The notes: generated from the letters alone by a model not told the origin. 64,000 nucleotides of DNA from Reclinomonas americana ATCC 50394 (GCA_048213135.1 PS015010.1:1426001-1490000), one strand, 5' to 3'; positions 7,959 to 62,805 are shown, counted from the first letter of the stretch. A program made the numbers and translations.

Positions 7959-7971
7959 TCCCCCGACCGCC

Positions 7972-8106: not shown

Positions 8107-8206
8107 TGCGGGGCTGGACGGTCGGTCGTTTGTTGTCCGTCGTCTTCCCTCCATGAACATTTTATCCGGTATAAGAGTTAAATTGTGATAACAACATTCA
8201 ACGCGT

Positions 8207-8836: not shown

Positions 8837-8921
8837 TGAACGGTGCTGAAACTGTACAAGTGAGTGACACAACGATGCCGGGGTGAGTACATTTGCCGGT
8901 AACAAAATTCAAACTACATAT

Positions 8922-42875: not shown

Positions 42876-43610
42876 ATGACCGATTTTGAACAATTTGAAC
42901 ACTTCCTCGCCCATCAGCTAACAGCTGAAGAAACAACCGCTTTCGAAGAGCGGCTGAAAAACGACCCCGCCTTCGCCGAATCATTCCGGCACTACCAGTT
43001 ACTTCAGCAGGACATGGAACAGTGGCACCAGGCAACACCAGGCAGACAACAACTGAAAGAAACACTGCAGGGTATTGTACAGCAACCCGCACAAAAGGCA
43101 AAACTGCGTTCAATGCGGTGGTACCTGTGGCGGGCCGCGGCTGTATTTATCATCGCGGCTGCTGTATGGTGGATGTTATTACCCGCTTCAAAAAGCAATG
43201 AGAAACTGTACGCGGAATACTCGGCAGGAGAAACACTTTCCTTTACCCGTGGCGGTGTTGCAGACAGCCTGTGGTCACAAGCATCAGCTCTGTTGTACGA
43301 TAAAAAATACAACGAGGCCATTGTTCCCTTACAACAAATCATCAATTCCGGTAAAGACAGCCTGCAGGAAGCCGCTCTCTATCTTGGTTATTCCTATATG
43401 CAGGCCGATAAAAACGAAACTGCGGAAAGTACATTCAACAGCATCCATACTTCCAACACCACCGCTGCGGAAAAACTGAGCTGGTATAAAGCCTTGCTTT
43501 ACCTCAAAACAGGAAAAAAGCCCGCCTGCATCAACCTGCTAAAAGAGATAGTTGCGGACGGCGGCGCTTATAGCGGTAAAGCAAAACAATTACTGAAAGC
43601 AGCAGACTGA
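42876..43610 (+). CDS. Putative anti-sigma factor (N-terminal helical domain, TM, TPR-like C-terminus)
   Basis: LTAEETTAFEERLKNDPAF, WRAAAVFII TM, ALYLGYSY / WYKALLYLK TPR-like helices; directly after the sigma gene. Confidence 0.78.
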   Translation: MTDFEQFEHFLAHQLTAEETTAFEERLKNDPAFAESFRHYQLLQQDMEQWHQATPGRQQLKETLQGIVQQPAQKAKLRSMRWYLWRAAAVFIIAAAVWWMLLPASKSNEKLYAEYSAGETLSFTRGGVADSLWSQASALLYDKKYNEAIVPLQQIINSGKDSLQEAALYLGYSYMQADKNETAESTFNSIHTSNTTAAEKLSWYKALLYLKTGKKPACINLLKEIVADGGAYSGKAKQLLKAAD

Positions 43611-46383
43611 TGAGCAGCACGCCCAGTAACCACCTGCTGTCCTTTCCATCACCCTCTTTGTCCTGCCCGGTATGTACCAGTCCTGCCCAGTAGTAAGGTG
43701 CATTTAAGGAGCCGGTATTTTTTTGCAGGTATTGCAATTTGGCTTTACGCAGGGCATCACCCGAATTTCCCTGGGTATAGGTTTTATAGAACACGTTGAA
43801 GAGTTGCGCCGTTGCCGCGTCGTCAATCGGCCAAAGACTGTTGATCACATTGCCCGCCCCGGCATAATAGAAGGCCCTCGATAAACTAAGCGGGCCTTCA
43901 TTCGGATCAAGCGTACCCAATCCTGTTTCACAACCACTGAGCATAACCAGGTCGGCGGTGGTACCCAGCGCATACAATTCCTGCATATACAATATGGAGT
44001 CGCTGAAATAGATACGGGGCTCATGCCCGTCGCCCAGGTCGGCATGCGTGGCAATGTGAATGACCGCGTCCTGCTGGAGCGAATTTCTGAAATGGCCAAT
44101 GGTGGCTGCCGCATCATCAAACAAACGGCTACCGGGGTGAGATTTTGTAACTGCATCCGCTTCTTCTTTCGTAAAAGGCAGCCTGGGCAGGCGGTGAAAA
44201 CCCTGGCGGCTGAAAGGCGTAAAAACAGCGAGGCGTTCATTTCCTGAACGATCCGTATTATTCACCAGCAAGGTGCTGATCGAAGAAGCCTGGCTTACAG
44301 TTATATTTCGGATGAGGAATTCATTGTTGTTCACCGTCAGCGCTTCAAAAGGCAAAACACTGAATACACCGTCGGGTATTACCAGCAGGTGATCGCAATC
44401 GCCATTCCTGATGGCAGTTGCTACCGCAGGCGGAAGTATGGTCCGTGTACAGGAATCCGTGAGCCGGAAAAAAGCGGCCCTGTCTTTTTCAAACAACCCG
44501 TGGGGGTCTTTGCAGTGCTGAAGAAAATGAGCAACGACCGGTAAGGCATTGGCTGCAATAAACGCCATACCGCTCCCTTTTTTATCATCCAGCCAGGTTA
44601 CATAGGCACCATTGCCCGCAGTAAAATATTGCAGTAATACCGTATTGCGTTGTATAACGGAATGGCGGAGTTCACTGGTATGAAGACGTGCGGTATCCAT
44701 GCCCGTTCGCCTGAGGGCGGGATATTGCTGGTTGAGCCTGCTTTCCTGTTCCAGGAACACACGGTTCTGCATTTCCAGTTCCCTGCGGATGCTGTCCTGT
44801 ATGCCCGGGTCAGTGGCTAACGCCAGGCTTCTTTCCAGTATCACAATACGATAGCGGGTATGGTTAAGCGGTTGGGCGGCACTGTCGATAACAGGCACGG
44901 CTTTCAATACATTATTTCGTTTTACGGAATGCAGCAGTATGATAGATTTGCTGTGCTCATTCAGCAGGATGGCTTCCTGTACCCAGGCCTCTTTTTTTTC
45001 CTGCTGCCACAACCGGTAACAATTATCCAGCGCTTTTTCACTCCTGTCCTTTCCCTGCCGCAGCATCGTCTGCATGGCATCATCGTAACTGAACGCTTCC
45101 AGTAATTTTTTCTCCGCGATGAAAGCCAGCTTACGGGCCTGTAATGCCTGTTTTATAAAACGGGTATCCTGCGATGTGGTATATTGCTGATCCCAAACTG
45201 CGGCCAGGCTGTCGAGGGCATCCATAATGGTATTCTCGGCGTAAATGTCTTTTTCCGCAGGCAGTGCGTTCCTGTCCGCCGAATCCACCCGTGTTACAGT
45301 ATACAATGCCTGATGAAAAGCGATCACAGCGCTGTCGGGTAACTGCAGTTTACGGTAAGCCGCACCTTTCTGCAATAATATTTTCCCGGCAATCCTGTCG
45401 CGGTACACACCCTTATAAGCAAGGGCCGACTGTAATGACAGGTTACATTGCCGCAGGCACTCCCGGTAACGGCTAAACGCGTATTCAATACCCGAGCGGG
45501 TCATACCCAGTTCCAGTTTCCTTTTTGGCAGATCTTCTGCCGGAACGAAGGGCAGCATGGTAGCAGCAAGCTGTGATTCCGCAACAGCTCCCCCCAGGTC
45601 GCCGGTACGCAGGAAGGCTTCCGCCCTTGTGGTATGAAGAACAGACAGGTTTTCGCGGGAGAAGGAAAAGGTACGCATCAGCCGGCCGGTAAAGCGGATC
45701 ACCGAATCATAAAGGCCGTTCTCCATCAATGGTATACAAAGATTGGGGGCCGATCCGCTGATATTATACAGATCGCCGGTACTGAGATCATAGTTCACCA
45801 GTTCCAGGTCATAACTGATCGCTTTCTTCAGGTCCCCGGCCACATTGTAGCCGATACCTAAACTTTCCTTGAAATCGAGGAGAGTCGTTTTATCGAGCCA
45901 GGGCTGGCTGTTCTGCAACGCGATGAAATATTCAGCGATCTCCGTATACTGCGGGTCATACACATCAATGCGAAATGCATAAGCGTACTGGCCGGCAAAA
46001 AGTGAATAGAACAACCTGGAAGCTGCCGTATCTTTTTCTATTGTGCTCCTTTGTGCATACAACAACAAGGCGGCATTTTTTTGCTGCGGGCTCCTGTCGG
46101 GCAAAAGAGCAAAAGCCCTGGCAGCTACATGTACCGCTTCAGGTGAACGTTGGGCTGCCACCCTGTTCCCGATCCATCCCTGCAGGAAACCCTGCAGCGT
46201 ATCGTACTCCCCGGCACGGGCCCAGCGGCTCACCAGCGTATCCGCCTGCGCCTGTGTTATATTCGTATATGCAGTGTCGTTAGTATCCGATTCCCCTGAA
46301 TGAGAAGGCCCGCTGCGTTTTGATGTGCAGCAGGCCAGCCCGCAATAAAATAATATAATGATAAAAGATGTTCTCGTCAGCAT
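43531..46383 (-). CDS. TPR + CHAT (caspase-like) protease with N-terminal signal and C-terminal TM
   Basis: LLVIPDG..LPFEAL, IHIATHA (His), LSGCETG (Cys), AFYYAGA..SLW.IDD, APYYWAG; start coupled (TGATG) to the upstream gene. Confidence 0.9.
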   Translation of the reverse strand: MLTRTSFIIILFYCGLACCTSKRSGPSHSGESDTNDTAYTNITQAQADTLVSRWARAGEYDTLQGFLQGWIGNRVAAQRSPEAVHVAARAFALLPDRSPQQKNAALLLYAQRSTIEKDTAASRLFYSLFAGQYAYAFRIDVYDPQYTEIAEYFIALQNSQPWLDKTTLLDFKESLGIGYNVAGDLKKAISYDLELVNYDLSTGDLYNISGSAPNLCIPLMENGLYDSVIRFTGRLMRTFSFSRENLSVLHTTRAEAFLRTGDLGGAVAESQLAATMLPFVPAEDLPKRKLELGMTRSGIEYAFSRYRECLRQCNLSLQSALAYKGVYRDRIAGKILLQKGAAYRKLQLPDSAVIAFHQALYTVTRVDSADRNALPAEKDIYAENTIMDALDSLAAVWDQQYTTSQDTRFIKQALQARKLAFIAEKKLLEAFSYDDAMQTMLRQGKDRSEKALDNCYRLWQQEKKEAWVQEAILLNEHSKSIILLHSVKRNNVLKAVPVIDSAAQPLNHTRYRIVILERSLALATDPGIQDSIRRELEMQNRVFLEQESRLNQQYPALRRTGMDTARLHTSELRHSVIQRNTVLLQYFTAGNGAYVTWLDDKKGSGMAFIAANALPVVAHFLQHCKDPHGLFEKDRAAFFRLTDSCTRTILPPAVATAIRNGDCDHLLVIPDGVFSVLPFEALTVNNNEFLIRNITVSQASSISTLLVNNTDRSGNERLAVFTPFSRQGFHRLPRLPFTKEEADAVTKSHPGSRLFDDAAATIGHFRNSLQQDAVIHIATHADLGDGHEPRIYFSDSILYMQELYALGTTADLVMLSGCETGLGTLDPNEGPLSLSRAFYYAGAGNVINSLWPIDDAATAQLFNVFYKTYTQGNSGDALRKAKLQYLQKNTGSLNAPYYWAGLVHTGQDKEGDGKDSRWLLGVLLISLLLSVIVLLYRYKRRRPQLSLLAG

Positions 46384-47960
46384 CAGGCACGGCGGCGTCT
46401 TCTGTACAGCCACCACAGCAAAAGTATCAATAAAATCAGCAGTATCACCCACCAGTAGCAGAGCAACCAGGCTACTACCCCTTTCGAACAATCATGCGGG
46501 GCATTGCCATCACAGCAGGCGCTGTACACTACCAGTGCATTGTTGGTACGCACCGGCATTTCAAATCCTTCTGTACCGGCAATTACAATACCATCGCTCA
46601 CCAGCCCGGCGGTAATGCTTGAAGGCGATTGCGCCGTGGCACCGTGGAAGTAAATATCGGCAGAGGCTTCCAGCACATCCGGGCTGTTAGGATAACTGCC
46701 GGGCATTACCTGCAGGTCAAACGACAACTGCCCCATCGTTTTGGGATTGCTTACCGGGTAAGGCAAACCTTCGGTGCCATCCAGCAGGTCGGTAGTGGGA
46801 TCGAGTGTGAAAATGATCCGGCTGTTGTCCCAGTCATAAACGATATTATTGATCACATAATCCGGTATATCGCTGTATGAAGCTTTCAGGTTCCATATTT
46901 TCTTCGCCTGGTTCATGTCCTGCGGTATATGAAAAGCCACCATCACCTTATCCGCAGCGCCTTTACCTGTGTTCTGAAAATTGATGGTATAGTGCAGTGT
47001 TTGCAGTGTTTTGGGCAGCGACAGGCACCTGGGGGAAACAGAAATACTGTTAGGATCATGTGCATATACACTCTGCATATTGGAAACAACACTGGTACCG
47101 CGGCTTATCCACTGTCCGCCTTTGTCATGGCGGTAAAACAACTCTGCCTCCATATTCGAAAAAGCCGGCAGCACATCCTTCTCTGCTGCAAGGAGTGAAA
47201 TAAAAATATTGGCGGTATCATCACTGGGCTTGATATTGTCAAACGTCAGGCCATACCTGTAGGCATTCAGATCGGCAGCGGCAGCGAGATTTACATTCTC
47301 ATTGTTAAACTTCCGCACATCGTTTACCTGTACCATCCGCTGCGTGTTAAAATCCTTTATGCCCGACATCTGCGCAGGATTGAGAATGGGTATAAAAGTG
47401 TTCTTCTCATTATTGTTGTAGCGGAATACCAGTTTGTAATCATAAATATTCTCCTGCGGAAATAACTTAGGAACATAACTGATGGCAGCCACCACGTAAT
47501 CGCTGTCCACAATGTCACGGGTGCTGGTAAACAACTTCACCTGGCCACTGGTGAGTGCCGGCGACGACATTTTCCCCGGCGCTGCTGCCGGCGTGCCTAT
47601 CATAACGGAACTGGCGGTGGTTGGAGGTCTGCGCCTGTGTTCGTACAACGCACTCGCCATCATTACCGGGGCGCCAAAGCAGGCTGAACTGGGAATCGTT
47701 ACAGGGCCACTTGAAAAATTACAGCAATAGTTGCCATCGCCTTTTTCCAGCCACAGGGAATACCTGGGGCTTTCACTGCCTGCGGGAAGATCCTGCCAGG
47801 AATACACCACCACCCCCGGTGGCAGGTAGATATTGATATTACTGCTGCCAATGCTGTTGGGCACCTGCAGGTAAGGCGCTGTTTGCGGGTACAGCAGGGA
47901 TGCCGGGAGAAAGGCCAGCAATAAACACAACAATTTCATGCCGGTGGGTATTGATTTCAT
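46383..47960 (-). CDS. Secreted/membrane-anchored protein with a DUF11/DUF7619-like Ig domain
   Basis: Signal peptide; HDPN...LHYTINFQNTG...ADIYF...PVRTN; C-terminal TM followed by RRRRR. Confidence 0.75.
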   Translation of the reverse strand: MKSIPTGMKLLCLLLAFLPASLLYPQTAPYLQVPNSIGSSNINIYLPPGVVVYSWQDLPAGSESPRYSLWLEKGDGNYCCNFSSGPVTIPSSACFGAPVMMASALYEHRRRPPTTASSVMIGTPAAAPGKMSSPALTSGQVKLFTSTRDIVDSDYVVAAISYVPKLFPQENIYDYKLVFRYNNNEKNTFIPILNPAQMSGIKDFNTQRMVQVNDVRKFNNENVNLAAAADLNAYRYGLTFDNIKPSDDTANIFISLLAAEKDVLPAFSNMEAELFYRHDKGGQWISRGTSVVSNMQSVYAHDPNSISVSPRCLSLPKTLQTLHYTINFQNTGKGAADKVMVAFHIPQDMNQAKKIWNLKASYSDIPDYVINNIVYDWDNSRIIFTLDPTTDLLDGTEGLPYPVSNPKTMGQLSFDLQVMPGSYPNSPDVLEASADIYFHGATAQSPSSITAGLVSDGIVIAGTEGFEMPVRTNNALVVYSACCDGNAPHDCSKGVVAWLLCYWWVILLILLILLLWWLYRRRRRA

Positions 47961-48111
47961 GCTTGCAGATTTTATTGATTAAATAATATCAAGTTGTACA
48001 GCCTGCAAATTTGTTACCTGTAAATCAATGCATTTCACATTTTTTTCACAGGTCAGCTATAAAGATATACCCCGGCGCTACAACTTGTATATAAAATAAC
48101 AATACCCCATA

Positions 48112-48144
48112 AAGAAAAGACCGGAACCCTGGGGCCCGGTCTTT
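48112..48144 (-). terminator. Intrinsic terminator
   Basis: AAAGACCGG...CCGGTCTTT hairpin with a T-run on the minus strand, just after the 48172 stop. Confidence 0.75.
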
Positions 48145-48171
48145 GATCGGTTTTCTGCGATCGTACTTACA

Positions 48172-50289
48172 CTATTTCAAACAGATGATACGCGATGTAT
48201 GGCTGTAATTGCCGGTGGTAACACTGTTGTAAATGGTTTTTTCATACGCGGTGAGCGCTACATAGCCGCACGGGTTCGATGTGGGCAGCGTCTGTATCTC
48301 AAACGTACCCGATCCGTTGGTCGTGCCGGACGGCGCAATACCTCCCGTACCCACAACCGTACCGAATGGTGAGGACACCTGGTAGTTCAGCAGCCAGGCA
48401 TCATTTACAGTAAAGCTGCCGGTGATCTTGCTGCCTTTGGTATAGTGCGAGCAATCGCCACCATCATCAATCACCAGGTTAACGTAAGGTACAATACTGT
48501 CCATTTGTATTACCTGGCTGGCACTGCCGGTTACAGTTACACCATCTGCCGCCATATTCTCAATGGTAATACGCAGCCTGTCATTGGTACCCGGGCTCCA
48601 CAACGCCACCACGCTGTTGATGTTGTTGGAGAAGTCCTGGTATTCGTAACAGTTATTCACCGCCGATACTGTTGGGTGCGTTATACCGGAACCGTTGAAG
48701 CCCAGCAGGTGCAGGTCATTGTTCACAAAATACTCGGCACTGGTGTTCAGGTTATTTACACGGATGCGGTATTTCGTTCCCACAAAGGGCGAGCACAGGG
48801 CCTGTACCACAATGATGCCGCCAAACGGACTGCCAGTGTAGGTATTGGTCTGGTTGATCTCAATCTTGGCGCCGGCTTTGGTCAAACCGCTTACGCCATC
48901 AATATTATCAACAGACACACCTCCTACGGTAAACAGCTGCGGATTTTTTCCATCCCAGGGTTTACCCGGGCGGATCTGGATATAACTGTCCAGCACATTG
49001 CCCCAGTAAGAAGGTTTGAAACCACTGGCCGGCGTGTTCCACGACAGTACAGCCCTCAGTTTCAGTACCACCGGTGTATCGCATTTTTTGCGGTAGGCCG
49101 ACAGGTCAACGGGCAATATCACGGAGTAGGAAATGCCTTCTTTCGGGTATTCACCCAGCAGGTCATGCACGTCTACCGATGCGGTGCCTATCTGCTTCCA
49201 TTGGCAATCACCATCGCTCTGTATCCAGAAGGTTACATATTCTTTTGATCCGCGGTGACAGAGGTCGCCACCATAACCGCCGGGCCTTTTTATCTGCAGC
49301 GTACCCACCAGTGCCTCGTTGTGATAATCAAGACCGGCACAGAAGATCTGTTCATAGCTGGTGTTGTACTGCAGCAGTTGCAGTTTGGCCAGGCTGTCTT
49401 TCCACACCAGCCCCGCTTTGGAGAACAGGCTTTCATTCAGCTTGATCTTTTCCACGTCGGGTGTGTCAATGGATTCAGCCAGCAGTTTCACACCCACGCG
49501 GTGCGATTCCACATCCAGTTTCTGGTCCTTATAAAATTTAGCCAGTTCAGCGATCTCCATTTTCGGTGCTTCCAGTTCATCTTTTACCGACAGCAGTTTC
49601 TCTTTTCCGCCGGGCACAAAATCAGCCAGGCTGTTGATGGAGATAAAAGGATTCAGGATCGCTTTTTCCAGGAGCGGCCCCACGCTTTCCAGTCCAAAAT
49701 GCGGATTCAGGATCATGAGCGGCCTTATTTGTACCCTTACGTCTTTTTTATCGGCCCACAGGTAAGGAAAACTGCTGGTACAGTTCGGGTCATTGGCCGG
49801 AGGTATCGCGTTCCAGCACAGTACAGCGCGTACCTTAGGCAGGTTGGCCTTGCGGCAGGTAAAATGACGGGGGTTGATCTTCAGGCGAAGGGTGTAGGAA
49901 ATGGGTTTCTCCAGTTTCTTGTCACAATCCTTCGTATCGGGAATGTCGTGTACGTTCACACCGGTGAATCCCATGTCATTCCAGGTGCCGTCACCATAAT
50001 CAAGGTAGAAGCGTACATATTCATAGCTTCCCTTGCTGCACAGAACGCCACTGTAGCCCTGCGCTCTTTTGATGCTGATCGTCGCCGTCAGTTCTTCCTG
50101 TTGCGGGTTAAAGCCCACACAGCCAATGGCTTCATAACTGGTATTGAATGGCTTGGGTATAAAGCCAAATACCGCTTCCGCCGTTTTCATAGACAGTTTG
50201 GCGGGATCCTGTGTCAGTACCTGGAGGAATTTGTTACGATTGTCGAGGAGATCCAGGAGATCCGCGGCATCGGATGTTGCTTTTGCCAT
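48172..50289 (-). CDS. Hypothetical 705-aa protein with two homologous ~140-aa Cys-containing domains
   Basis: NTSYE..C.G...E.L...(I/L).IKR..GY.G.LC..GS.EYV.F...RAVL.WN...QIRP occurs twice, 260 aa apart; start MAKATSD. Confidence 0.85.
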   Translation of the reverse strand: MAKATSDAADLLDLLDNRNKFLQVLTQDPAKLSMKTAEAVFGFIPKPFNTSYEAIGCVGFNPQQEELTATISIKRAQGYSGVLCSKGSYEYVRFYLDYGDGTWNDMGFTGVNVHDIPDTKDCDKKLEKPISYTLRLKINPRHFTCRKANLPKVRAVLCWNAIPPANDPNCTSSFPYLWADKKDVRVQIRPLMILNPHFGLESVGPLLEKAILNPFISINSLADFVPGGKEKLLSVKDELEAPKMEIAELAKFYKDQKLDVESHRVGVKLLAESIDTPDVEKIKLNESLFSKAGLVWKDSLAKLQLLQYNTSYEQIFCAGLDYHNEALVGTLQIKRPGGYGGDLCHRGSKEYVTFWIQSDGDCQWKQIGTASVDVHDLLGEYPKEGISYSVILPVDLSAYRKKCDTPVVLKLRAVLSWNTPASGFKPSYWGNVLDSYIQIRPGKPWDGKNPQLFTVGGVSVDNIDGVSGLTKAGAKIEINQTNTYTGSPFGGIIVVQALCSPFVGTKYRIRVNNLNTSAEYFVNNDLHLLGFNGSGITHPTVSAVNNCYEYQDFSNNINSVVALWSPGTNDRLRITIENMAADGVTVTGSASQVIQMDSIVPYVNLVIDDGGDCSHYTKGSKITGSFTVNDAWLLNYQVSSPFGTVVGTGGIAPSGTTNGSGTFEIQTLPTSNPCGYVALTAYEKTIYNSVTTGNYSHTSRIICLK

Positions 50290-50381
50290 AGCGTTTGATT
50301 TTATTATGTGAAGAATAGTTTTCCCAGGTCGGGTTGTACCTGCTGTTGCCCAAACCGGCAATTTGTTACCGGGTGCAACCC

Positions 50382-50396
50382 TACCACAATGTGGTA
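50382..50396. promoter_or_regulatory. Perfect palindrome, candidate operator
   Basis: TACCACA-A-TGTGGTA in a divergent intergenic region. Confidence 0.4.
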
Positions 50397-50422
50397 ATAC
50401 GTTTCCTGTGAAAACCTTTGCC

Positions 50423-50513
50423 ATGGCGTGTCCCTGCGGGCCGGGCTCTCCGCTGCAAATCCTCGCCGCTCGTACCTCGCCGCTGCGGGTTTTCCGCTGC
50501 CATCCCTCACGCA
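50423..50513 (+). repeat. Structured GC-rich dispersed element, copy 2 (Flavo-1 RNA motif-like)
   Basis: Homologous to 7866-7958. Confidence 0.7.
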
Positions 50514-50673
50514 CTTTCATAGAACAGTGCATTGAAATAATTGAGTACTGTATACTTGTTGGCAGCTCTTCTTCTTACTGCTAAAAAACAAAACCCGTAC
50601 TTCTACGCTCCCCTGTTTTCTTTTACTGTACTAACATTAACCCGCCTAAAAAAACCTATTACTGATCTGCCTT

Positions 50674-54226: not shown

Positions 54227-54314
54227 AGCAGTAGTTTTACTATTAGTGATGTAAAATGGTTACGAATTTTTCGGGAAATCTATTCGGCAGTAAACGGGAT
54301 GGAGTTCACCCGTA

Positions 54315-55145
54315 TTATTTACTTTTTCCTTCATACTCCTGCAACACTTCATTCGCCAGGTCGGGAAAGTCTGTTATAATACCATCCACGCCTATCTTCA
54401 TAAAGTACATCATCTCATCGCGGTTATTGACGGTCCATACGTTGACCTTTTTACCTGCCTTATGCATTTTTTCAATAAAAGACTTGGTGAGCAGCCGGTT
54501 ATAAACAGACACTTCGGTTACATAATCATCAGCGGAAGGAGTATTAAACATACCTGTCAGCAGCAATTGGTGCAGCGGAATTTCCGGGGCCATCGCATGT
54601 ACGGTATCCAGTATTTTTTCTTTAAAGGAATGGATCATGCACCAGCTTTCCGCTTTATGCTTACGGATCAGTTGAATAACTTTACGCTCTATACCCGGGT
54701 ATACATTATTGCCTTCTTTCAATTCTATCAGCAATACCGCTTTCCCGTTCACCACGCGGATCGCATCTTCCAGCAGGGGTATTTTTTCCTGAAGGGTATC
54801 GCCACGAAAAGGTTTGATAAAATATTTCCGGATCTCATCATAGTTCATATTCCTGATCCGGCCTTTACCATTGGTCATCCTGTCGATGGTTTCATCGTGC
54901 ATAACCATGATCTCTCCGTCGGCAGTCTGGTGCACATCAATTTCAATGCGTGCGCATTTCATTTCAAGCCCCTTGCGAATGGCCGACAATGTATTTTCCT
55001 GTGCCAGACCACCCGCGCCGCGATGCCCGGTTATGGTTACCTGCTGGCGCATACCTGTGCAGGGAACAGCGTTTTTCCTGGTGCGGAAGCCGTAGAACAG
55101 CGAGACAGACAGGAGAAGGGCAATTACAATGATGAGTTTTTCCAT
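54315..55145 (-). CDS. Glycerophosphodiester phosphodiesterase (GDPD) with N-terminal signal/anchor
   Basis: GHRGAGG..ENT, IEIDV, MHD..IDR.T, LIELK, VWTVN, GVDGIITDFP; alternative start at 55166. Confidence 0.92.
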   Translation of the reverse strand: MEKLIIVIALLLSVSLFYGFRTRKNAVPCTGMRQQVTITGHRGAGGLAQENTLSAIRKGLEMKCARIEIDVHQTADGEIMVMHDETIDRMTNGKGRIRNMNYDEIRKYFIKPFRGDTLQEKIPLLEDAIRVVNGKAVLLIELKEGNNVYPGIERKVIQLIRKHKAESWCMIHSFKEKILDTVHAMAPEIPLHQLLLTGMFNTPSADDYVTEVSVYNRLLTKSFIEKMHKAGKKVNVWTVNNRDEMMYFMKIGVDGIITDFPDLANEVLQEYEGKSK

Positions 55146-55177
55146 AGTGTATATGATTAGTATCATGAATAAATTTG

Positions 55178-56125
55178 TTAGCCCCGTTCAACTGTTACTT
55201 CAACAGAATAACTGCCATAGTTGTCGTCTTGTATATTATCATTCACCTGGAATTCAATACAACCGCTTCTTGGAGCTATGAAACGTTTGAACTTGCCGGC
55301 AACCTTCCATTCCCTATCGCCGGCAATTCTGTACATCAATGCTGCATGGTTAAACTGTGAAACGATGTTGTAGCTCTCCAGGCTAAACCCTCCTACTCCC
55401 GAAGGCCTTCCATCCGGGTCAGAACTGCCAACCCAACTCCCAACCCTGATATGTCCTGATGCTTCAATGGTTACCAGGTCATTTTTACTGACGCAGACGG
55501 AAGAACGGATAAAGCCGTCTACTTTTGTTTCTTCCGAACGGCCGGGCCGCATCCTGATTATTGCGATCGTATTGATTTCATATAAACCCGGCTCCGACTT
55601 CAGTGGTTTGTATTCCCGCTGCGGGTCCCTCACCTGCAACCGGATGGCATTCGATCCTTCAAGAAGCCCCCTTGGAACGGGTATCTTAAACATGCCAATG
55701 TTATTCGTCAGCACAGGCGCTGATACTATATCACCGGAAACAATACTGACTTCTATCCCGGGAAGTGCATCATTATTTCCTGTCGAGGTAGTGACAATAC
55801 CATAAAGAACAATGCTACCGCGCTGAATCGAAAAGTTGAATATGTAATCACTGCTGATCGTACATTCCTGTTCAGAAGAACCTATTTCCGGGTCTGTAGT
55901 GTACACAGTGAGTGTATACCCGGGCCTGCAATCAGGACAGGCATTAAGGGGCATGGCGTAACGCCCCAGGTCATCTGTACGCACAGAAGCAAAGGAGGTG
56001 TATACAGTCAGCCCTTTCACAGGCAGCCCGTTCATTTTTATCGTCCCTTTCAAAACACGGCCCTGGGCAAAAGCGCTGCAGGCCAGCAACAGGCAGACGA
56101 TAGTGCAAATCATTCTTGTTCTCAT
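55178..56125 (-). CDS. Secreted protein: two carboxypeptidase-regulatory-like beta-sandwiches plus a C-terminal LecA/PA-IL-like lectin domain
   Basis: Signal peptide ending AFA-Q; VTIEASGHI...PDG...AALMYRI..W..AG..F.A..SG.IEFQVND....DNYGSYSVEV. Confidence 0.65.
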   Translation of the reverse strand: MRTRMICTIVCLLLACSAFAQGRVLKGTIKMNGLPVKGLTVYTSFASVRTDDLGRYAMPLNACPDCRPGYTLTVYTTDPEIGSSEQECTISSDYIFNFSIQRGSIVLYGIVTTSTGNNDALPGIEVSIVSGDIVSAPVLTNNIGMFKIPVPRGLLEGSNAIRLQVRDPQREYKPLKSEPGLYEINTIAIIRMRPGRSEETKVDGFIRSSVCVSKNDLVTIEASGHIRVGSWVGSSDPDGRPSGVGGFSLESYNIVSQFNHAALMYRIAGDREWKVAGKFKRFIAPRSGCIEFQVNDNIQDDNYGSYSVEVTVERG

Positions 56126-56126
56126 A

Positions 56127-56993
56127 TTATTGGCTGGATTTAGTTAGAAAAATATTTTTAGTGTATTCTTTCAGGCGGTCGACTACTATGGTTTCCGAAA
56201 ATGTGGCGCTTTCATAACCATCCTTATCCACATTATACTCCAGTACCATACTCCCTTTTTGTGTGGGAGAGAACGAAATGGAGTAACTCCCGTTTTTAGT
56301 TATCGCTTGTTTTCCGGCTACACTTATTGTAGCACCGTCGATTGGTTTTTTGGTCAGAACATCTCTTACGTTTCCGTATAAAAGGATACGTACAGGGGGA
56401 GGAATCGGAGGTTCTCCTGGCGGTTTAACGTCATTGCCTATTATACCTTTAGCTACGTGCTCTATACCTATTGACTGCCTTGAAGTACTACTGTCTGCAT
56501 TTTTCCAAAACCAGTAGCCACAGCAGGACAATACCAATAACAGGGCTACCGCTATACTCAGGCATCTCCTTTTTCTTTTATTCCGCCACACCTGTACCCG
56601 CTTAGCGATCTTGTCTGCGATCTCTGCCGGATTATCATTCCACTTTTCAAATACAGTAAAGCTGTCAATACTTTTACCTTTCATGTTCCAGTCATCCAAA
56701 CGCAAAGTCAGCACATCACTCCCACGTCCTCTTATCCCATGAACAAATTGTTTTTCGATACCGGGCCAGTAATTCTTTTCATAGTTCCTGCTGGCGATCA
56801 GCAAAACAAACTTCGATTCCCTGGTATACACCCTGAGCAGCTTCTCTATGAGTATTTCTCCCCACTGGTCTTCTTTCGTATAGATGTAACAGCGTATTTT
56901 CATCCGCGTCAGTATCTCTTCTATCTGCTGAGCCACCCTGAGGTCCTGCGTTGCAAAGGAGAAGGCCACATCATATTTGTATTTTCTGCACAT
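56127..56993 (-). CDS. TIR-domain protein with a single TM helix and extracytoplasmic beta-sandwich
   Basis: YDVAFSFA, FVLLIASRNY..YWPGIE (putative catalytic Glu), LTLRLDD; KRKRR then TM; Pro linker; LYGNVRD..TKKPIDGATI...KDGYE; alternative start at 57020. Confidence 0.85.
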   Translation of the reverse strand: MCRKYKYDVAFSFATQDLRVAQQIEEILTRMKIRCYIYTKEDQWGEILIEKLLRVYTRESKFVLLIASRNYEKNYWPGIEKQFVHGIRGRGSDVLTLRLDDWNMKGKSIDSFTVFEKWNDNPAEIADKIAKRVQVWRNKRKRRCLSIAVALLLVLSCCGYWFWKNADSSTSRQSIGIEHVAKGIIGNDVKPPGEPPIPPPVRILLYGNVRDVLTKKPIDGATISVAGKQAITKNGSYSISFSPTQKGSMVLEYNVDKDGYESATFSETIVVDRLKEYTKNIFLTKSSQ

Positions 56994-57003
56994 AGCGTCG
57001 TTT

Positions 57004-57954
57004 TTATATTTTACCGGCATTGACCAGTTTCCAGTAATATTTTCCCAATGGCGTAAGCCTGCAGGCGCCGGAATGCTGTGCCTCCAGGTACATGAACTCT
57101 TCACTCACCGGCATCACCAGCCCGCTGCCGTTCATTTTCTGGAGCTGCTTCATGATCTTTACATTCGCTTCTACCGCTATCCCTGTATTGCTGTCTTCAT
57201 AAGAAGGGTCCATCACATGGTGCGCTTCAGGGTCATGGAAAAAGGAAGCAATGCTTCTCAGTATATCCCGGCTGATGCGGGGCTGTACATTCCTCAGCGA
57301 ACAGAAGCTGTTTACATTGGTTTTGAACTGTGGCCGTTGCTGCCAGAAACTCAAAGACCGGTCGATGTAGCTGTATACATCCCCCGGTGAAATATTACCG
57401 GTAAGGTCTGCAGCACCCCCGCTCAGGGCATCGAGTAAGAGGGACGTAAAAATGCCGTGGCCATTCATTTCTACCGCAGACTCATGAGACATGGTAGCGG
57501 TAAGGATCGTGACGCCGTTGCCGAGTATAGAGAACGGGTTGCCAATGATCACGGGTGTACCCGCGGCCCCTGCATGGCAACAATCGATGATGATGATTTT
57601 TTCCCTGATGGCCGACTGGTTGGCCAATATCAGCAATTCATCCATGGCAATGCCTTCGTCATATTGCCTGAAATCGGGCGTAACAATAAAACCGCCCCGC
57701 TCATTAATGCAGCCATGACCGGCGAAATAAAACAGGGCCGTATCGAGTTGGGCGCTGAACAGCTTGATGATACTGGCCCTGAGCTCTGCCCTTGTCTTAA
57801 CATCTTTCCTTAATAAAACAGAAAAATTGTTTGAACCGTCTTCATGGGTCTCCAGCAATTGGGCTAAAGCAACCGCATCATTAACGCTGCCGCGGAGTCT
57901 TGCTGATCCGGGATAATCATTGATCCCTACAATTAATGCGCCTCGTGTATTCAT
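57004..57954 (-). CDS. Caspase-family (C14) cysteine protease
   Basis: ALIVGINDY, LRGSVNDA, FYFAGHG (His), IIDCCHAG (Cys), GHGIFTSLL, QRPQFKTNV; C-terminal LVMPV..FMY..CRLTPLGKYYW extension. Confidence 0.93.
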   Translation of the reverse strand: MNTRGALIVGINDYPGSARLRGSVNDAVALAQLLETHEDGSNNFSVLLRKDVKTRAELRASIIKLFSAQLDTALFYFAGHGCINERGGFIVTPDFRQYDEGIAMDELLILANQSAIREKIIIIDCCHAGAAGTPVIIGNPFSILGNGVTILTATMSHESAVEMNGHGIFTSLLLDALSGGAADLTGNISPGDVYSYIDRSLSFWQQRPQFKTNVNSFCSLRNVQPRISRDILRSIASFFHDPEAHHVMDPSYEDSNTGIAVEANVKIMKQLQKMNGSGLVMPVSEEFMYLEAQHSGACRLTPLGKYYWKLVNAGKI

Positions 57955-58021
57955 GAGCAGGATGGTTTAAGGTTTTTAGAATAATCGTCTTTTCAGACAT
58001 TCCAAAAATCAAAAATGAATA

Positions 58022-58108
58022 CGGGGGAAAAAACTCCAGCCATCCGGAAAATTCCCCTTTTTATAAGTCGTGAAAAAAAGCAGGCAGGCGCACCGGGGAT
58101 TTTTCCGG
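58022..58108. promoter_or_regulatory. Three related palindromic boxes in a divergent promoter region
   Basis: GGGGAAAAAACTCC (~58024), CCGGAAAATTCCCC (58044-58057) and GGGGATTTTTCCGG (58095-58108); the last two are 13/14 inverted copies. Confidence 0.5.
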
Positions 58109-58189
58109 TAAATGAATACCACGCATTGACCGGTTATGGAATGGCCATAGATTAGCATTCATAAACACTCAAACCAAAACCCCTTCATT

Positions 58190-58678
58190 ATGAAAGAACA
58201 ATTCACCGCCACACCGCTACCTTTCTTTTTCATCAGCAAAGAAGTCGCTGCAGAAAGGATATCCAATTATGGCAGCAACAAAGGCAGCATTTTATCCCAG
58301 GAACTTGGAAGAACCGATACCAGGAGCGTATGGTATTCCAGGGAACATATTGAAAGCCTGCTGCAGGAGATCGACCTCGTCAATGGCGACGGGCTGCGCA
58401 TCTTTTTCGGAGCATATGAATCCACGCATGAATATCCCAACCAGACCTGCCTGATCATGGTACCCACCCGCGAGGAGCTGACGGAGAACAACAGCATCAT
58501 TCACAAAAACGTTATCCTGGAAGATGAACCTGATTTTGAGAACAGGAGCAGCCTGGCCAGGGAAATATGGACGATAACAGGCGATGAAGACCTTTCTGAC
58601 GTGTGCCGGAATTTCAACCACGGCTCTCCCTGCCCTCCTTTATGCGATGGTAACGACGGGTTGGAATTTTACAGCTAA
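58190..58678 (+). CDS. Hypothetical protein with C-terminal NHGSPCPPLC motif (first gene of the TCS cassette)
   Basis: DTRSVWYS, DGLRIFFGAY, CLIMVPT, NFNHGSPCPPLC; no signal peptide. Confidence 0.8.
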   Translation: MKEQFTATPLPFFFISKEVAAERISNYGSNKGSILSQELGRTDTRSVWYSREHIESLLQEIDLVNGDGLRIFFGAYESTHEYPNQTCLIMVPTREELTENNSIIHKNVILEDEPDFENRSSLAREIWTITGDEDLSDVCRNFNHGSPCPPLCDGNDGLEFYS

Positions 58679-58695
58679 AAATGTAAATTAGATGA

Positions 58696-59373
58696 ATGCA
58701 GAAATTATTATCGTACCACTATATCTACCTCATTCCTTTATTGCTTAGCGCCATCTTCAGCCTGAAAAGTTTCAGGCGGGGATGGCCCGGGCCGTACAGG
58801 ATATTTTCCATCTTCCTGATTATCACCCTTATGACCGAAGTATCTGCCATCTCCTGGAAATGGTACCTTTATAAAACACCGTACTGGAGTTTTTCAAAGT
58901 CCAACCTGTGGATATACAACGCGGCCCATATCCTGAGGTTTTTCCTGTTCACACTTTTCTATTCGCGGATGCTCACAGCTCCTTTTTTTAAAAGACCCGT
59001 ATGGTATATTGCCATACCGCTGATCATTTTTGGCTGCCTGGAATATGCCTGGCTGCAGGGACCGCATACCATGAACAGCTATACAATAATCCTTACCAAT
59101 TTTTCCTGTATATTATTATCCCTCTCCTTCTTCAGGCAATTGCTGAAAGAGGATAAGCCCATCCGGCTTTCGGCACATCCAATGGTATGGATTTCATTGG
59201 GTTCTTTTGTTTACTTCTCCGGATCACTCCCTTTCTTTATCTTTTTCAACTACCTCTTCAAGCACAATGTCAATCTTGCCATTTCACTGCTCTATATCAA
59301 CCATGCGCTCAACACAATCATGTATTCATTCTTTTTAATTTCGTTCTTATGCAATCCTCACTCTCGGAAGTAA
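58696..59373 (+). CDS. Multi-pass (6-7 TM) membrane protein, putative sensor subunit
   Basis: NLWIYN and WISLGSFVYFSG motifs; overlaps the HK start by 25 bp. Confidence 0.8.
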   Translation: MQKLLSYHYIYLIPLLLSAIFSLKSFRRGWPGPYRIFSIFLIITLMTEVSAISWKWYLYKTPYWSFSKSNLWIYNAAHILRFFLFTLFYSRMLTAPFFKRPVWYIAIPLIIFGCLEYAWLQGPHTMNSYTIILTNFSCILLSLSFFRQLLKEDKPIRLSAHPMVWISLGSFVYFSGSLPFFIFFNYLFKHNVNLAISLLYINHALNTIMYSFFLISFLCNPHSRK

Positions 59374-60146
59374 GTTTTCTGACGATACTGGTATCCACAT
59401 TACTGATCTTGTTATTCAGCGGTGTGATCATCTATTTTCTTTTTCTTTACCAGAAGAAAAGGTATCACCATGAAAGGGAAGTGATTGAACTGCGGGAGTC
59501 ATTCAGTCAGACGCTGCTGCAATCGAAACTGGAGATACAGGAACAAACCCTCGATCATATTGCCAAAGAGCTGCATGCCAACTTCAGCCACCTGGTATCA
59601 CTCATCAATATCAACCTTTCGGAAATACTGCCACAGGGCACCAGCCCCATGAAAGAGAGCATAATTGAAACAAAGTCACTGGCCAAGCAGCTCCTGTCGG
59701 AATTAAAAGCATTGAGTGCCAGCCTCAATACGGATCACATCATGCACATAGGTTTTGTGAGTGCCGTGGATAATGAACTGGCACGGCTGACCAAAGCGAA
59801 AAAATACAAGGTGAGCTTTACTAAAACCGGGGAAGAATACCGGCTGTCTCCCGAACATGAGATCATCCTTTTCAGGCTGTGCCAGGAGGTATTCAATAAC
59901 ATTATGAAATACGCAAAGGCTACTTCCGTTTTCGTATTGATCAGTTACCAGCCTGATCATATGACTATGGAGATCACCGATGACGGCATAGGATTCGATG
60001 TAGGAAAGGCGATGAATACCAGCGCGGAAAAACAAAGTACCGGCCTGGTCAACATGAAAAAAAGAGCGAAACTGATCAATGCTGAAATATTTATTGAAAG
60101 CCGTGAAAATGCCGGCACCACTATAAAGATCATTATCCCACACTAA
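59349..60146 (+). CDS. Sensor histidine kinase (HisKA_3/NarX-type, single TM)
   Basis: IQEQTLDHIAKELHAN H-box, LFRLCQEVFNNIMKYA N-box, ITDDGIGF, STGLVNMKKRA; start MQSSLS. Confidence 0.92.
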   Translation: MQSSLSEVSFLTILVSTLLILLFSGVIIYFLFLYQKKRYHHEREVIELRESFSQTLLQSKLEIQEQTLDHIAKELHANFSHLVSLININLSEILPQGTSPMKESIIETKSLAKQLLSELKALSASLNTDHIMHIGFVSAVDNELARLTKAKKYKVSFTKTGEEYRLSPEHEIILFRLCQEVFNNIMKYAKATSVFVLISYQPDHMTMEITDDGIGFDVGKAMNTSAEKQSTGLVNMKKRAKLINAEIFIESRENAGTTIKIIIPH

Positions 60147-60155
60147 ACCCGACCC

Positions 60156-60849
60156 ATGCAAACAGAAAAAAAGAAATATAACATTGCTATTGTCGATGAT
60201 CATAACCTGTTCAGGAAAGGCCTCATTAAACTGATCAGCATCGGCGACAAAAACAACATTTACAATATTGTACTGGAAGCGGAGAACGGCAACGATCTGA
60301 AAAAAAAAGCTGAACATAAAAAACCTGCCGGACATTATCCTTATGGACATAGATATGCCGGATATGGATGGGTATGAAACCGTAGACTGGCTCCGGAAAT
60401 TCTATCCCGACATCAACATCCTTGTTGTGTCCATGTTCGAATCCCGCGAAGCGATCGTACGTATGATCAGGCTGGGGGTAAAAGGCTACCTGTCCAAGGA
60501 TATTGAAGTGGAAGACATGCACATGGCATTGGAAGCCATTGCCAGTAAAGGATTCTACTACTCCGACCTGGTTTCCGAAGTCATGGTAGAGGCCATCCGG
60601 CTGGGAGAAACTTCTTACGATGAATCCGTTTCCAGTAACCCGGATGCCTGGAAAAATCTGTCCGAAAATGAAAGAGAATTTATCAAACTCGCCTGCACGG
60701 ATATGACCTACCAGCAGATCGCGGATAAAATGAACCTGAGCCCCAAAACCATTGATGGTTACAGGGAAAGCCTTTTTCTTAAGTTCAGCACCAAGAACAG
60801 GGTGAGCCTGGCCATGTATGCGGTAAAGAATGGTCTTGTTAAACTATAG
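60156..60849 (+). pseudogene. NarL/LuxR-family response regulator interrupted by a +1 frameshift in an A9 run
   Basis: ORF 60156-60377 (IAIVDDHNLFRKG) and ORF 60343-60849 (MDIDMP...LSPKTIDGYRE HTH) join as ...LKKKLNIKNLPDIILMDIDMP if A9 at 60300-60308 is A8, giving 230 aa. Confidence 0.9.
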
Positions 60850-61130: not shown

Positions 61131-61625
61131 ATGTATTACCAGGCATTCCCCCAAAAAAACAATAAGCGCAATTACACGTTGTTATATAAACGCTTACCGG
61201 TATCTGCTGCCGCCCTGCTGCTTTTTTACATCATCATCTGCGGCTATGCCTGTCAATACAAGAAAACCAATACTTCAATGAAAGAAAAGGAACCGAACAC
61301 ACAGCCTGCCGATTCAGCCAGACTGCTTACTGTTGCCAATGCGGAAGCAACCGCCAACGGGACTATGATAACCGCCTGGTTTTTTGAAACACCCCAAATA
61401 TTCGAATTCAATCTTGTCAATAATGAACAGGCGCAGCAAATATTCAGCCTGTTAAAAGCCGCTAAAGAAAAAGGAGTTCCCGTTAATGTTTACAGTACAA
61501 CAGCCGGGGGTAAAAATATCATAACCCGTATTGCCGCGGCCACGGAAGCACAGCTCATACAGTACAAAAAAGATAAAGCGATGCGGGAACAACCGGCACC
61601 GGTACCTCCGCCCGGAAATAAGTGA
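61131..61625 (+). CDS. Stand-alone homolog of the protein-glutaminase pro-domain (probable lipoprotein)
   Basis: AWFFETPQIFEF..LKAAKEKGVPVNV..MREQPAPVP aligns with AWFYESPQIFSF..LKYAKENNVPVNV..KREMATPVP of the next gene; GYAC lipobox-like; start uncertain. Confidence 0.78.
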   Translation: MYYQAFPQKNNKRNYTLLYKRLPVSAAALLLFYIIICGYACQYKKTNTSMKEKEPNTQPADSARLLTVANAEATANGTMITAWFFETPQIFEFNLVNNEQAQQIFSLLKAAKEKGVPVNVYSTTAGGKNIITRIAAATEAQLIQYKKDKAMREQPAPVPPPGNK

Positions 61626-61761
61626 TGCGATATGTAATAATACTAAGTATACACTTGTGAATAAAATTCTGCCTGGTCTGCAGCCGGAATACAGAAATTT
61701 TTGTAAGTTTAAAGTGCAGTAATTAGGAATAGTATTCTTAACCAACTAAACCCCCGTACTC

Positions 61762-62805
61762 ATGATTACCAAGTATCCCAAAAAGATACGGTCAGTATTT
61801 GTTATTGCCGTATTACTCCTCACCTGCTTTGCAGGTTTCTATTCCTGCCAGAAAAATAAAGCTCCGGCAGATGATCCACAATCAGAACTGTTACAACCCG
61901 GCGCTCATGACCGCTTCTACTCTGTTGCCAATGTATTTTATACAGCAGATGGCAAATCGGTTCAGGCCTGGTTCTACGAATCGCCGCAGATCTTTTCATT
62001 CAGTGTTACCAACCCGCACGCCAAGGCCAATTTCGACGCGTTGAAATATGCCAAAGAAAATAATGTACCGGTAAATGTACGCCTGTCTGAAAGTGCCAGC
62101 GACCGTATTGATGTCATTATTCCTTCCACCACTGAACAAAGAGCCGGTTTTAAAGCGGATATGGCAAAAAGAGAAATGGCCACCCCGGTACCGTCTCCCG
62201 AAGAAGTGGCCGCCCAGGGAACCAATAACCTGGTAGGCGTAATCCCCAATGTGGCCACACTCAATACCATTTTTAATAAGATAAAAGACCAATGCTGCAA
62301 ATCGCCTGGCCCGTATACCTACGGACAATGTGTTCCCTTCCAGTTTGTAGCCGATGGCTGCTATGCACGGGCGCATAAAATGCGGCAAATCATTGAAAAT
62401 TTTTACGGCTACACTTCGTACAAAGTATTTAACTACGCCTGCAATGGCAGCGGCACACTTTCCGTAAGCGCTACACTGTGGAACAACAACTGTTGTGTAA
62501 ACTGGTGGTACCATGTGGCCTCCTATGTTTATGTACAGGTGGGCAGTTCACAAGTGGCTTACCTGATCGACCCTGCCATGTTCACCGGGCCGGTGAGCAT
62601 CAGCTCATGGGTATCGGCACAAAAAAATGCAGGCTGTGGTTATAACGGCTCGGCACAGGGACAGGTATACTATACCAGTAATGCTTACGCCCCGTCCAGC
62701 CTGAACACAGGTACCTGCACCCTGGTTCCGTTTGCCGACAATACCTATACAGCGGCCGATGCTACCTGCGCAAGTTATGCACCCAAACAAGGTTGCTTCT
62801 TTTAA
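61762..62805 (+). CDS. Protein-glutamine glutaminase (protein glutaminase) pre-pro-enzyme
   Basis: DGCYARAHKMRQ (Cys), CCVNWWYHVA (His), LIDPAMF (Asp), as in Chryseobacterium protein glutaminase; lipobox FYSC. Confidence 0.9.
   Translation: MITKYPKKIRSVFVIAVLLLTCFAGFYSCQKNKAPADDPQSELLQPGAHDRFYSVANVFYTADGKSVQAWFYESPQIFSFSVTNPHAKANFDALKYAKENNVPVNVRLSESASDRIDVIIPSTTEQRAGFKADMAKREMATPVPSPEEVAAQGTNNLVGVIPNVATLNTIFNKIKDQCCKSPGPYTYGQCVPFQFVADGCYARAHKMRQIIENFYGYTSYKVFNYACNGSGTLSVSATLWNNNCCVNWWYHVASYVYVQVGSSQVAYLIDPAMFTGPVSISSWVSAQKNAGCGYNGSAQGQVYYTSNAYAPSSLNTGTCTLVPFADNTYTAADATCASYAPKQGCFF

Follow-up and report, generated by a model that had tools for sequence, protein, structure and literature searches.

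A candidate type IV Thoeris variant combining a caspase-like protease with a receptor-like membrane TIR protein, a LecA-fold lectin and a phosphodiesterase

In a 64-kb stretch of DNA deposited under Reclinomonas americana ATCC 50394 (GCA_048213135.1 PS015010.1:1426001-1490000; hereafter the window, with positions counted from its first nucleotide), we identified four minus-strand genes lying head to tail that encode, in this order, a caspase-like protease, a TIR protein with a single predicted transmembrane (TM) helix, a secreted lectin, and a glycerophosphodiester phosphodiesterase (GDPD). On balance, we consider it probable that these genes encode a modified type IV Thoeris serving abortive-infection defence, in which a receptor-like membrane TIR is accompanied by a periplasmic lectin and an anchored GDPD. 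Type IV Thoeris is an abortive-infection defence system in which a TIR protein makes N7-cyclic ADP-ribose (N7-cADPR), and this in turn activates a caspase-like protease (bioRxiv 10.1101/2024.10.24.620036). Its published detection combines a caspase profile with TIR_2 or ThsB within one gene, at an i-E-value of 0.1 (bioRxiv 10.1101/2024.10.24.620036); in the window, a TIR_2 match (E 5.1e-6) is found 10 nt from the caspase.

The four open reading frames (ORFs), read from the window sequence, are separated by 10 nt (caspase/TIR-TM), 1 nt (TIR-TM/lectin) and either 11 or 32 nt (lectin/GDPD), the last depending on whether the GDPD starts at 55166 or at a second ATG at 55145. A 235-nt region separates the caspase from an opposite-strand gene for a 162-aa protein, and the next same-strand gene downstream of the GDPD is 88 nt away. 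A scan for sigma-70 promoters and terminators found no credible terminator-like site between the four genes, the sigma-70 consensus being uninformative for Bacteroidota promoters. Just past the GDPD stop, at a distance of 2 nt, lies a weak minus-strand hairpin (window 54294-54313: ACGGG, a 10-nt loop and CCCGT, then TTTAC) that may mark the end of the transcription unit; its loop exceeds the maximum of 8 nt accepted by the scan. The features of the locus are the following.

57955..58189, no strand assigned: 235-nt divergent intergenic region, presumed promoter region of the four-gene unit
57004..57954, minus strand: caspase-like protease, 316 aa, type IV Thoeris effector family (Peptidase_C14 and homologues)
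56127..56993, minus strand: TIR-TM protein, 288 aa (ORF)
56589..56993, minus strand: TIR domain, residues 1-135, predicted cytoplasmic, with W76xxxE80 (profile and fold)
56499..56588, minus strand: basic stretch WRNKRKRR and single TM helix, residues 136-165 (hydropathy and model)
56388..56498, minus strand: Pro-rich low-complexity linker, residues 166-202, predicted periplasmic (low model confidence)
56130..56387, minus strand: transthyretin-like/CarboxypepD_reg sandwich, residues 203-288, predicted periplasmic (Pfam and Foldseek)
55178..56125, minus strand: secreted 315-aa protein, LecA/PA-IL-fold lectin (model and fold match)
55181-55531, minus strand: LecA/PA-IL-fold domain of the lectin, residues ~199-315 (fold match)
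54315..55166, minus strand: GDPD, 283 aa, or 276 if started at the ATG at 55145; hydrophobic anchor at the N terminus, then RTRK (Pfam)

The caspase-like protein matches Peptidase_C14 (Pfam, E 9.6e-18), and an alignment of 20 homologues shows that both residues of its dyad, H80 and C126, are invariant and that a C-terminal domain (~residues 215-316) is conserved. In type IV Thoeris, the C-terminal domain of the caspase has been proposed to bind N7-cADPR (bioRxiv 10.1101/2024.10.24.620036). We found 906 homologues of the same length in Bacteroidota, Firmicutes and even archaea, with identities of 50-73% over 97-100% of the query among the 120 matches listed. A scan of reference genomes gave 451 relatives, and neighbours were counted on the best 80 of these 451 loci, all of which hold full-length relatives (42-55% identity). 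A TIR-type ORF, as recognised by two local profiles, is present within 500 nt on the same strand in 74 of the 80 loci and missing from six. Because one of the two profiles came from iteration on these same neighbours, Pfam tallies provide an independent check: among 72 immediate upstream same-strand ORFs, 46 match ThsB_TIR and 14 TIR_2, and among 66 immediate downstream ones, 19 match TIR_2 and 13 ThsB_TIR. Judged from sequence, the caspase is thus a member of the type IV Thoeris effector family. The window contains a single TIR over its 64 kb, the membrane TIR protein, and this is the sole TIR partner of the caspase there. PADLOC made no system call on the locus, its matches being limited to a generic caspase model and to weak TIR models, and searches of its proteins against NCBIfam gave sub-threshold matches only.

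Concerning the TIR-TM protein, its TIR_2 match scores 27.4 bits, 0.6 bits below the Pfam cut-off of 28. The TIR assignment is nevertheless secure, because a profile of 13 full-length relatives matches the solved NADase TIRs 7uxr, 7uwg and AbTIR (8g83), aligning the W..iE of the family to their WT.YE catalytic motif (profile versus PDB), because the fold of the N-terminal domain resembles that of AbTIR (TMt 0.79), and because E80 is invariant in 13/13 full-length relatives and in 68/68 TIR-TM relatives. The structural model (pLDDT 78.9) has one long helix spanning residues 122-167, with a hydrophobic segment at residues 144-162 (KD 2.19) that is preceded by five K/R residues. This is followed by a PPGEPPIPPP linker, with pLDDT <50 at residues 170-191, and by a C-terminal sandwich that matches CarboxypepD_reg at E 1e-3 and, by Foldseek, carboxypeptidase D domains (5aq0, TMt 0.70), and that is kept in the 13 full-length relatives. 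Since the stretch WRNKRKRR precedes the helix, the positive-inside rule places the TIR inside and the C-terminal domain outside. The protein is therefore predicted to be a single-pass inner-membrane protein with a cytoplasmic TIR and a periplasmic sandwich, protein topologies in this work being read from the sequence and not from a predictor, as is the lectin signal peptide described below.

An exhaustive protein search with the TIR-TM protein retrieved 1718 relatives at E <=0.001, and 149 of the listed representatives were classified by architecture. In 68 of them, an N-terminal TIR and a TM helix are followed by 60 residues or more, and in 10 others with TIR and TM helix the protein ends less than 60 residues past the helix; of the rest, 53 have no TM helix, 15 carry the TIR elsewhere, and three are without the domain. 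Over the 78 TM-bearing relatives, K+R residues average 5.2 before the helix and 1.9 after it, and are more numerous before than after in 70. The 68 longer proteins include 63 with TIR_2, 27 with an FGE-sulfatase domain and four with CarboxypepD_reg. A caspase followed, after a gap of 5-29 nt, by a TIR-TM-FGE-sulfatase protein of 357-375 aa occurs in six of the 80 caspase loci, belonging to four Chitinophaga genomes, Terrimonas ginsenosidimutans, and one Sphingobacteriales metagenome-assembled genome (MAG); the hydrophobic score is weak (1.35) in one of these proteins (L038). Among 401 sampled Chitinophagales genomes, two have a full-length TIR-TM-FGE gene (one being the genome of L038), and both have the caspase directly upstream. 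A search of genome contigs with the single TIR-TM query found no relative.

In a TIR-domain tree of hand-picked sequences, rooted at the midpoint only, the window TIR falls in a clade (support 100/89) with P0001, P0006, P0007, P0128, P0130 with L081, and P0129. This clade sits in a poorly resolved radiation together with all six caspase-adjacent TIR-TM-FGE proteins. The proteins bearing CarboxypepD_reg are scattered over the tree, which suggests that the outside domains of these TIR proteins have been shuffled.

The third gene encodes a protein whose N terminus (MRTR..., a hydrophobic core, then AFA/QG) reads as a Sec signal peptide (residues 1-21). Its model (pLDDT 85.3) consists of two beta-sandwiches and a C-terminal domain, and this last matches LecA/PA-IL (4cp9, 2vxj, 1l7l) with TMt 0.77-0.78 and root-mean-square deviations of 2.5-2.6 over 126-128 columns, and PllA/EclA with TMt 0.67-0.71. 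There was no Pfam match, including none to PA-IL at E up to 0.1, and a profile of the lectin family against the PDB found PllA only, at a marginal E of 0.88, on the motifs GD.vti.A.G and ND...DN.G.y.V. Residues N295, D296, N297 and N302 are invariant and lie within the stretch aligned with ND..GDNSG of PllA. The family is small, with 18 homologue clusters among 5.8 billion proteins, and PF13620 (CarboxypepD_reg) is recorded for five of them; by BLASTP, we found no similarity between the TIR ectodomain and the sandwiches of the lectin. The full-length lectin was not found in the 401 Chitinophagales genomes or in 201 relatives of the Lacibacter genome, and its alignment gave no match against viral contigs. 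As we found neither a conserved lipoprotein Cys nor a type IX secretion tail in the family, the lectin is most likely resident in the periplasm. A co-fold of the mature lectin with residues 196-288 of the TIR-TM protein (its ectodomain), made without alignments or controls, gave a score of 0.00 and is counted neither for nor against binding.

Apart from two unrelated secreted proteins, the search of the 201 Lacibacter relatives yielded nothing. These two, of 326 and 351 aa and from two Chitinophagales genomes (L139 844-1824 and L140 1492-2547), have a C-terminal LecA-like domain (E 6e-9 to the lectin profile). No TIR is found near these two genes, indicating that the LecA-like fold occurs in Chitinophagales outside a TIR context.

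The product of the fourth gene matches GDPD (PF03009) at E 3.5e-43 and the solved structure 2pz0 at E 2.9e-36, and keeps the HRG, ENT, E.DV and HD motifs, as do three orthologues. With the GDPDs at the end of the related gene modules L081 and L083, described below, it shares 62% identity, and all three have in common the N-terminal anchor and a YGF(K/R)TR(K/Q) motif. By the positive-inside rule, the catalytic domain would be tethered to the membrane in the cytoplasm, and not beside the lectin, a placement that could be wrong. Matches below cut-off include cytoplasmic UgpQ-type enzymes and a membrane-anchored lysophosphatidylglycerol phospholipase D model, the latter over its full length (E 1e-17). 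As to the role of the GDPD, it may serve as a helper enzyme or, by acting on lipids, as a second effector.

A first-pass annotation of this DNA had proposed four co-oriented genes with very short gaps, encoding a soluble C14 caspase with an intact dyad, a protein in which a TIR domain retaining the WxxxE Glu is followed by KRKRR, one TM helix, a Pro linker and a carboxypeptidase-type sandwich, a secreted protein with a LecA-like domain, and a GDPD. The ORF coordinates, alignments and fold matches given above bear out each of these elements. The receptor-like wiring that it read into the second gene agrees with the single hydrophobic helix and the charge bias, and the link that it drew to type IV Thoeris is supported by the TIR and ThsB neighbours of the caspase family.

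How tightly are the genes linked? When metagenomes were scanned with the TIR-TM family, 57 loci were obtained, two of which contain full-length relatives of the TIR-TM protein, L081 (40% identity) and L083 (50% identity). Both have the gene order TIR-TM-CarboxypepD_reg, lectin, GDPD (lectin 392-410 bits, GDPD 382-388 bits), and the flanking genes differ among the window, L081 and L083. In L081, two tandem lectin paralogues (7892-9829) stand between the TIR-TM and GDPD genes, the window and L083 having a single lectin. From these comparisons of sequence and gene order, we conclude that TIR-TM, lectin and GDPD are a conserved module, and that the caspase is joined to it in the lineage of the window. 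Moreover, the homologue clusters of caspase and lectin agree in contig number and in longest contig, with contigs of 37,637, 24,365, 20,178 and 9,906 nt. The first two hold near relatives, and in the pairs of the other two the caspase is 54-59% and the lectin 49-50% identical.

A partial protein from a Chitinophagaceae MAG (P0284) joins the C-terminal half of a TIR, with W..EE, to a basic stretch, a TM helix and then the lectin. Its TIR-TM part matches that of the window at E 1e-11, and its mature lectin begins ~10 residues past the TM helix, with 54% identity to the window lectin over 298 residues and no gaps. We considered gene-calling read-through of two adjacent genes and rejected it, as the protein has neither the CarboxypepD_reg domain nor the signal peptide of the lectin, and the TM helix is joined directly. 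This natural fusion is the strongest evidence that the separate lectin of the window works with the TIR-TM protein, and together with the trio in L081 and L083 it upholds the tie between lectin and TIR-TM protein that had been suggested from the window alone.

Divergence along the module is mosaic. Compared with P0007, the window protein is 97% identical in the TIR and 90% in the basic-TM segment, 24% in the linker and 70% in the CarboxypepD_reg outside domain, and the linker is only 24-35% identical even where the TIR of relatives is 97-99% identical. The lectin P0278, apparently on the same contig as P0007, shows 83%, 68% and 76% identity in its three domains (~75%), and the caspase cluster that includes this contig is at least 90% identical. 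In these sequences, which represent two near relatives only, the segments with a predicted outside location change faster than those inside, whether by divergence or by exchange, and they change together.

Among known systems, the closest is type IV Thoeris itself, which likewise places a caspase with a C-terminal domain beside a TIR, with matching positions of the catalytic Glu, His and Cys. In the published work, PsTIR E79Q (E89Q in the methods text) or PsCaspase C129A abolishes defence (bioRxiv 10.1101/2024.10.24.620036); the window residues are E80 and C126. The TIR proteins of that description are short, and the sections of it drawn on here mention no membrane segment. By contrast, the window TIR protein reaches 288 aa and includes a TM helix and an outside domain; its gene is downstream of the caspase gene and is followed by those for the lectin and the GDPD. 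The operons of Chitinophaga, Terrimonas and relatives (L038, L044, L048, L049, L060, L069, L142) share with the window the caspase family, the gene order, the two-component flanks and the TIR radiation, but their ectodomain is an FGE-sulfatase domain (C-type-lectin fold) in the same polypeptide, and they have no separate lectin or GDPD. The C-terminal 117 residues of the lectin share their fold with LecA (PA-IL) of Pseudomonas aeruginosa and with PllA/EclA. Unlike LecA, to which it is ~20% identical, the window domain comes after two sandwiches in a protein whose gene is linked to that of a TIR, and its binding of sugar and calcium is putative.

Lectin-fold domains (FGS, NPCBM) have also been proposed to sense invaders in combination with TIR or caspase effectors, in conflict systems predicted by Kaur, Burroughs, Iyer and Aravind (PMC7159879; PMC8195603). 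Those sensors are described as intracellular, and the portions of these accounts considered here contain no across-membrane layout, LecA fold, GDPD or link to the type IV Thoeris caspase (PMC7159879; PMC8195603). Animal Toll-like/IL-1 receptors resemble the window protein in having an outside binding domain, one TM helix and a TIR inside, and a soluble binding protein as possible co-receptor. They differ in domain order, which is reversed in the window protein with its N-terminal TIR, and in their unrelated ectodomain; moreover, the window TIR keeps the catalytic Glu and presumably signals by a small molecule, not by recruiting adaptors. The Toll-like layout is thus best regarded as an analogy, with no evidence of common descent. 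Within the published material surveyed, a literature search found no membrane-anchored Thoeris TIR, LecA-type partner or defence GDPD, although type IV lists may include the Chitinophaga operons uncommented; nor did it find a paper on the four-gene architecture, which the first-pass annotation had also taken to be undescribed.

These comparisons allow a mechanism to be proposed. The lectin and the TIR ectodomain would respond to a periplasmic cue, probably a glycan, which would alter the packing of TIR domains on the inner face of the membrane; the TIR would then convert NAD+ into a cADPR-type signal, which would bind the C-terminal domain of the caspase, and the activated caspase would degrade cell proteins and so stop the infection. 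The step from TIR to caspase is taken by analogy from characterised systems and fits the residues and gene pairing of the window. Outside-in sensing is plausible, being suggested by the layout, the sugar-binding folds outside, the P0284 fusion and the mosaic divergence. The analysis establishes gene order, domain make-up, catalytic residues, the family of the caspase and the genetic linkage of TIR-TM, lectin and GDPD; what we infer is the topology, the cue, the contact between lectin and ectodomain, which signal is made, the function in defence, and what the GDPD does. The complete form of this proposal, namely a TIR receptor with a LecA-type lectin as co-receptor that turns a periplasmic glycan cue into a cADPR-type signal and caspase activation, with co-adapted, fast-evolving outside parts and the GDPD as a second, membrane-directed arm, is possible, and we put it forward as tentative. 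The glycan cue would be provided by phage entry, by damage to the wall or outer membrane, or by attack from another cell.

The same genes might instead belong to an ordinary type IV Thoeris that senses in the cytoplasm, where TM helix, ectodomain and lectin would only hold the TIR at the inner membrane, for instance close to where phage genomes enter or by a tether to the wall, without any transmembrane signal. An anchor alone can indeed suffice, as indicated by the 10 of 78 TM-bearing relatives with <60 residues past the helix, and the window TIR shares its clade with short soluble TIRs standing beside caspases (e.g. L082, 181 aa, gap 2 nt). However, we regard this explanation as unlikely, for it does not account for the recurrence of sugar-binding folds outside (FGE-sulfatase in 27 of the 68 longer relatives, the LecA fold in the window), for the TIR-TM-lectin fusion, or for the faster divergence of the outside parts with respect to the TIR.

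A number of observations weigh against a four-gene type IV Thoeris variant or against its outside-in form. No homologue of the lectin or of the GDPD occurs in any of the 80 caspase loci, and there is no caspase with the trio in L081 (7 kb upstream) or in L083 (1.8 kb upstream and ~5 kb downstream); since the trio lives there without a caspase, the module can exist without this effector. The four further contigs that probably carry both caspase and lectin are recognised from equal sizes and counts, not from gene order. In L083, the TIR-TM gene is broken near residue 84 into two ORFs of 84 and 216 aa (1813-2714), either through decay or through assembly error. The match of the caspase to the Pseudomonas and E. 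coli proteins that have been tested is indirect, made through the TIR/ThsB neighbours of its relatives, and a sequence search found no solved structure of the family. The characterised ThsB proteins, as far as that source describes them, are all short and soluble (bioRxiv 10.1101/2024.10.24.620036), and the GDPD has no recognisable signal-binding domain. Finally, the switching of a TIR domain by a periplasmic event is hypothetical. Of the suggestion that the four genes act as one unit, what stands is the trio, which recurs; membership of the caspase does not find the same support in L081, L083 or the 80 caspase loci.

The occurrence of the trio without a caspase means that it may have an output of its own, for example NAD+ loss through the TIR or an action of the GDPD on lipids. 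TIR-TM, lectin and GDPD could then be autonomous, working by NAD+ depletion or lipid attack, and the caspase a later addition or mere neighbour. Consistently with this, lectin and GDPD (~60%) are better conserved than the TIR-TM protein (40-50%), and the GDPD resembles, over its full length, the lysophosphatidylglycerol phospholipase D model mentioned above, if below cut-off. Nevertheless, it appears decidedly improbable, given that the window caspase has no other TIR and lies only 10 nt away, that a TIR stands beside 74 of 80 caspases of the family, that related TIR-TM proteins follow the caspase in Chitinophaga, and that no signal-binding domain can be recognised in the GDPD.

The genomic surroundings bear on both origin and function. 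Divergently from the caspase, four plus-strand genes (window 58190-60849) code for the 162-aa protein, which is of no known family, a membrane protein of 225 aa, a histidine kinase and a response regulator of LuxR type. This set accompanies the caspase in nine loci (L021, L038, L044, L048, L049, L052, L055, L060, L069) spanning several Chitinophagaceae genera, and may regulate the system or be no more than syntenic with it. As the best scores are with Lacibacter luteus, the window DNA most likely comes from a Chitinophagaceae bacterium. The TIR partner at the syntenic caspase site varies among short ThsB types, WD40-TIR, TIR-TM-FGE and the present module. Such synteny with a two-component system across a bacterial family appears unlike the usual mobile defence island, and is a further point against a defence role, as is the fact that we recognised no defence genes directly beside the locus. 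A vertically inherited non-defence module of gliding soil Bacteroidota, for envelope-glycan or lipid-turnover signalling or developmental cell death, would accommodate both, yet is very improbable because caspases of this family from different phyla and from archaea are still 50-55% identical and occur on plasmids, a pattern typical of mobile defence genes, because the tested family members described in the preprint are anti-phage (bioRxiv 10.1101/2024.10.24.620036), and because the TIR partners at the syntenic locus change from genome to genome.

Some further features of these loci deserve mention. The LuxR-type response regulator of the window (60156-60849, plus strand) is in two frames, 60156..60377 and 60343..60849; in the second, the match to the receiver profile (111 positions) starts no earlier than position 48, and relatives have one ORF of ~222 aa; the split is a frameshift or a sequencing error. 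The L055 locus carries a Minisyncoccia MAG label, yet has Chitinophagaceae-type synteny (two-component genes, ThsB, caspase, WD40-TIR), which may reflect mis-binning of the contig. About 7 kb from the four genes, on the minus strand (window 43531-50532), a 986-aa CHAT-domain protein of the caspase superfamily is followed by a 525-aa DUF7619 protein and then by a protein of 786 aa that contains an internal duplication and belongs to no Pfam family, a cluster that may be a second conflict system. On the other side (window 61131-62805, plus strand), two adjacent secreted proteins have a common N-terminal domain (AWF.E.PQIF.F ... VPVNV), to which the second protein adds a protein-glutaminase domain (Gln_deamidase_2, E 7e-24); the pair may represent an enzyme and a paralogous pro-domain or inhibitor.

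To our knowledge, described Thoeris TIR proteins have all been treated as cytoplasmic. Three points are new here: the placing of a receptor-like TIR in one operon with an effector for which an assay is known, the existence of the lectin in split and fused forms, and the GDPD. Activation of the caspase by filtered lysate is a published assay (bioRxiv 10.1101/2024.10.24.620036), and coupling of the receptor-like TIR to this effector family makes outside-in TIR signalling in bacteria directly testable. The natural occurrence of a split form (TIR-TM plus secreted lectin) and a fused form (TIR-TM-lectin) offers a ready-made comparison. Were the outside-in reading to fail, type IV Thoeris would still be widened to membrane-anchored TIRs and two accessory genes. 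If it is true, the system would represent the first case of Thoeris sensing beyond the cytoplasm, and a working bacterial counterpart of the Toll-like receptor layout.

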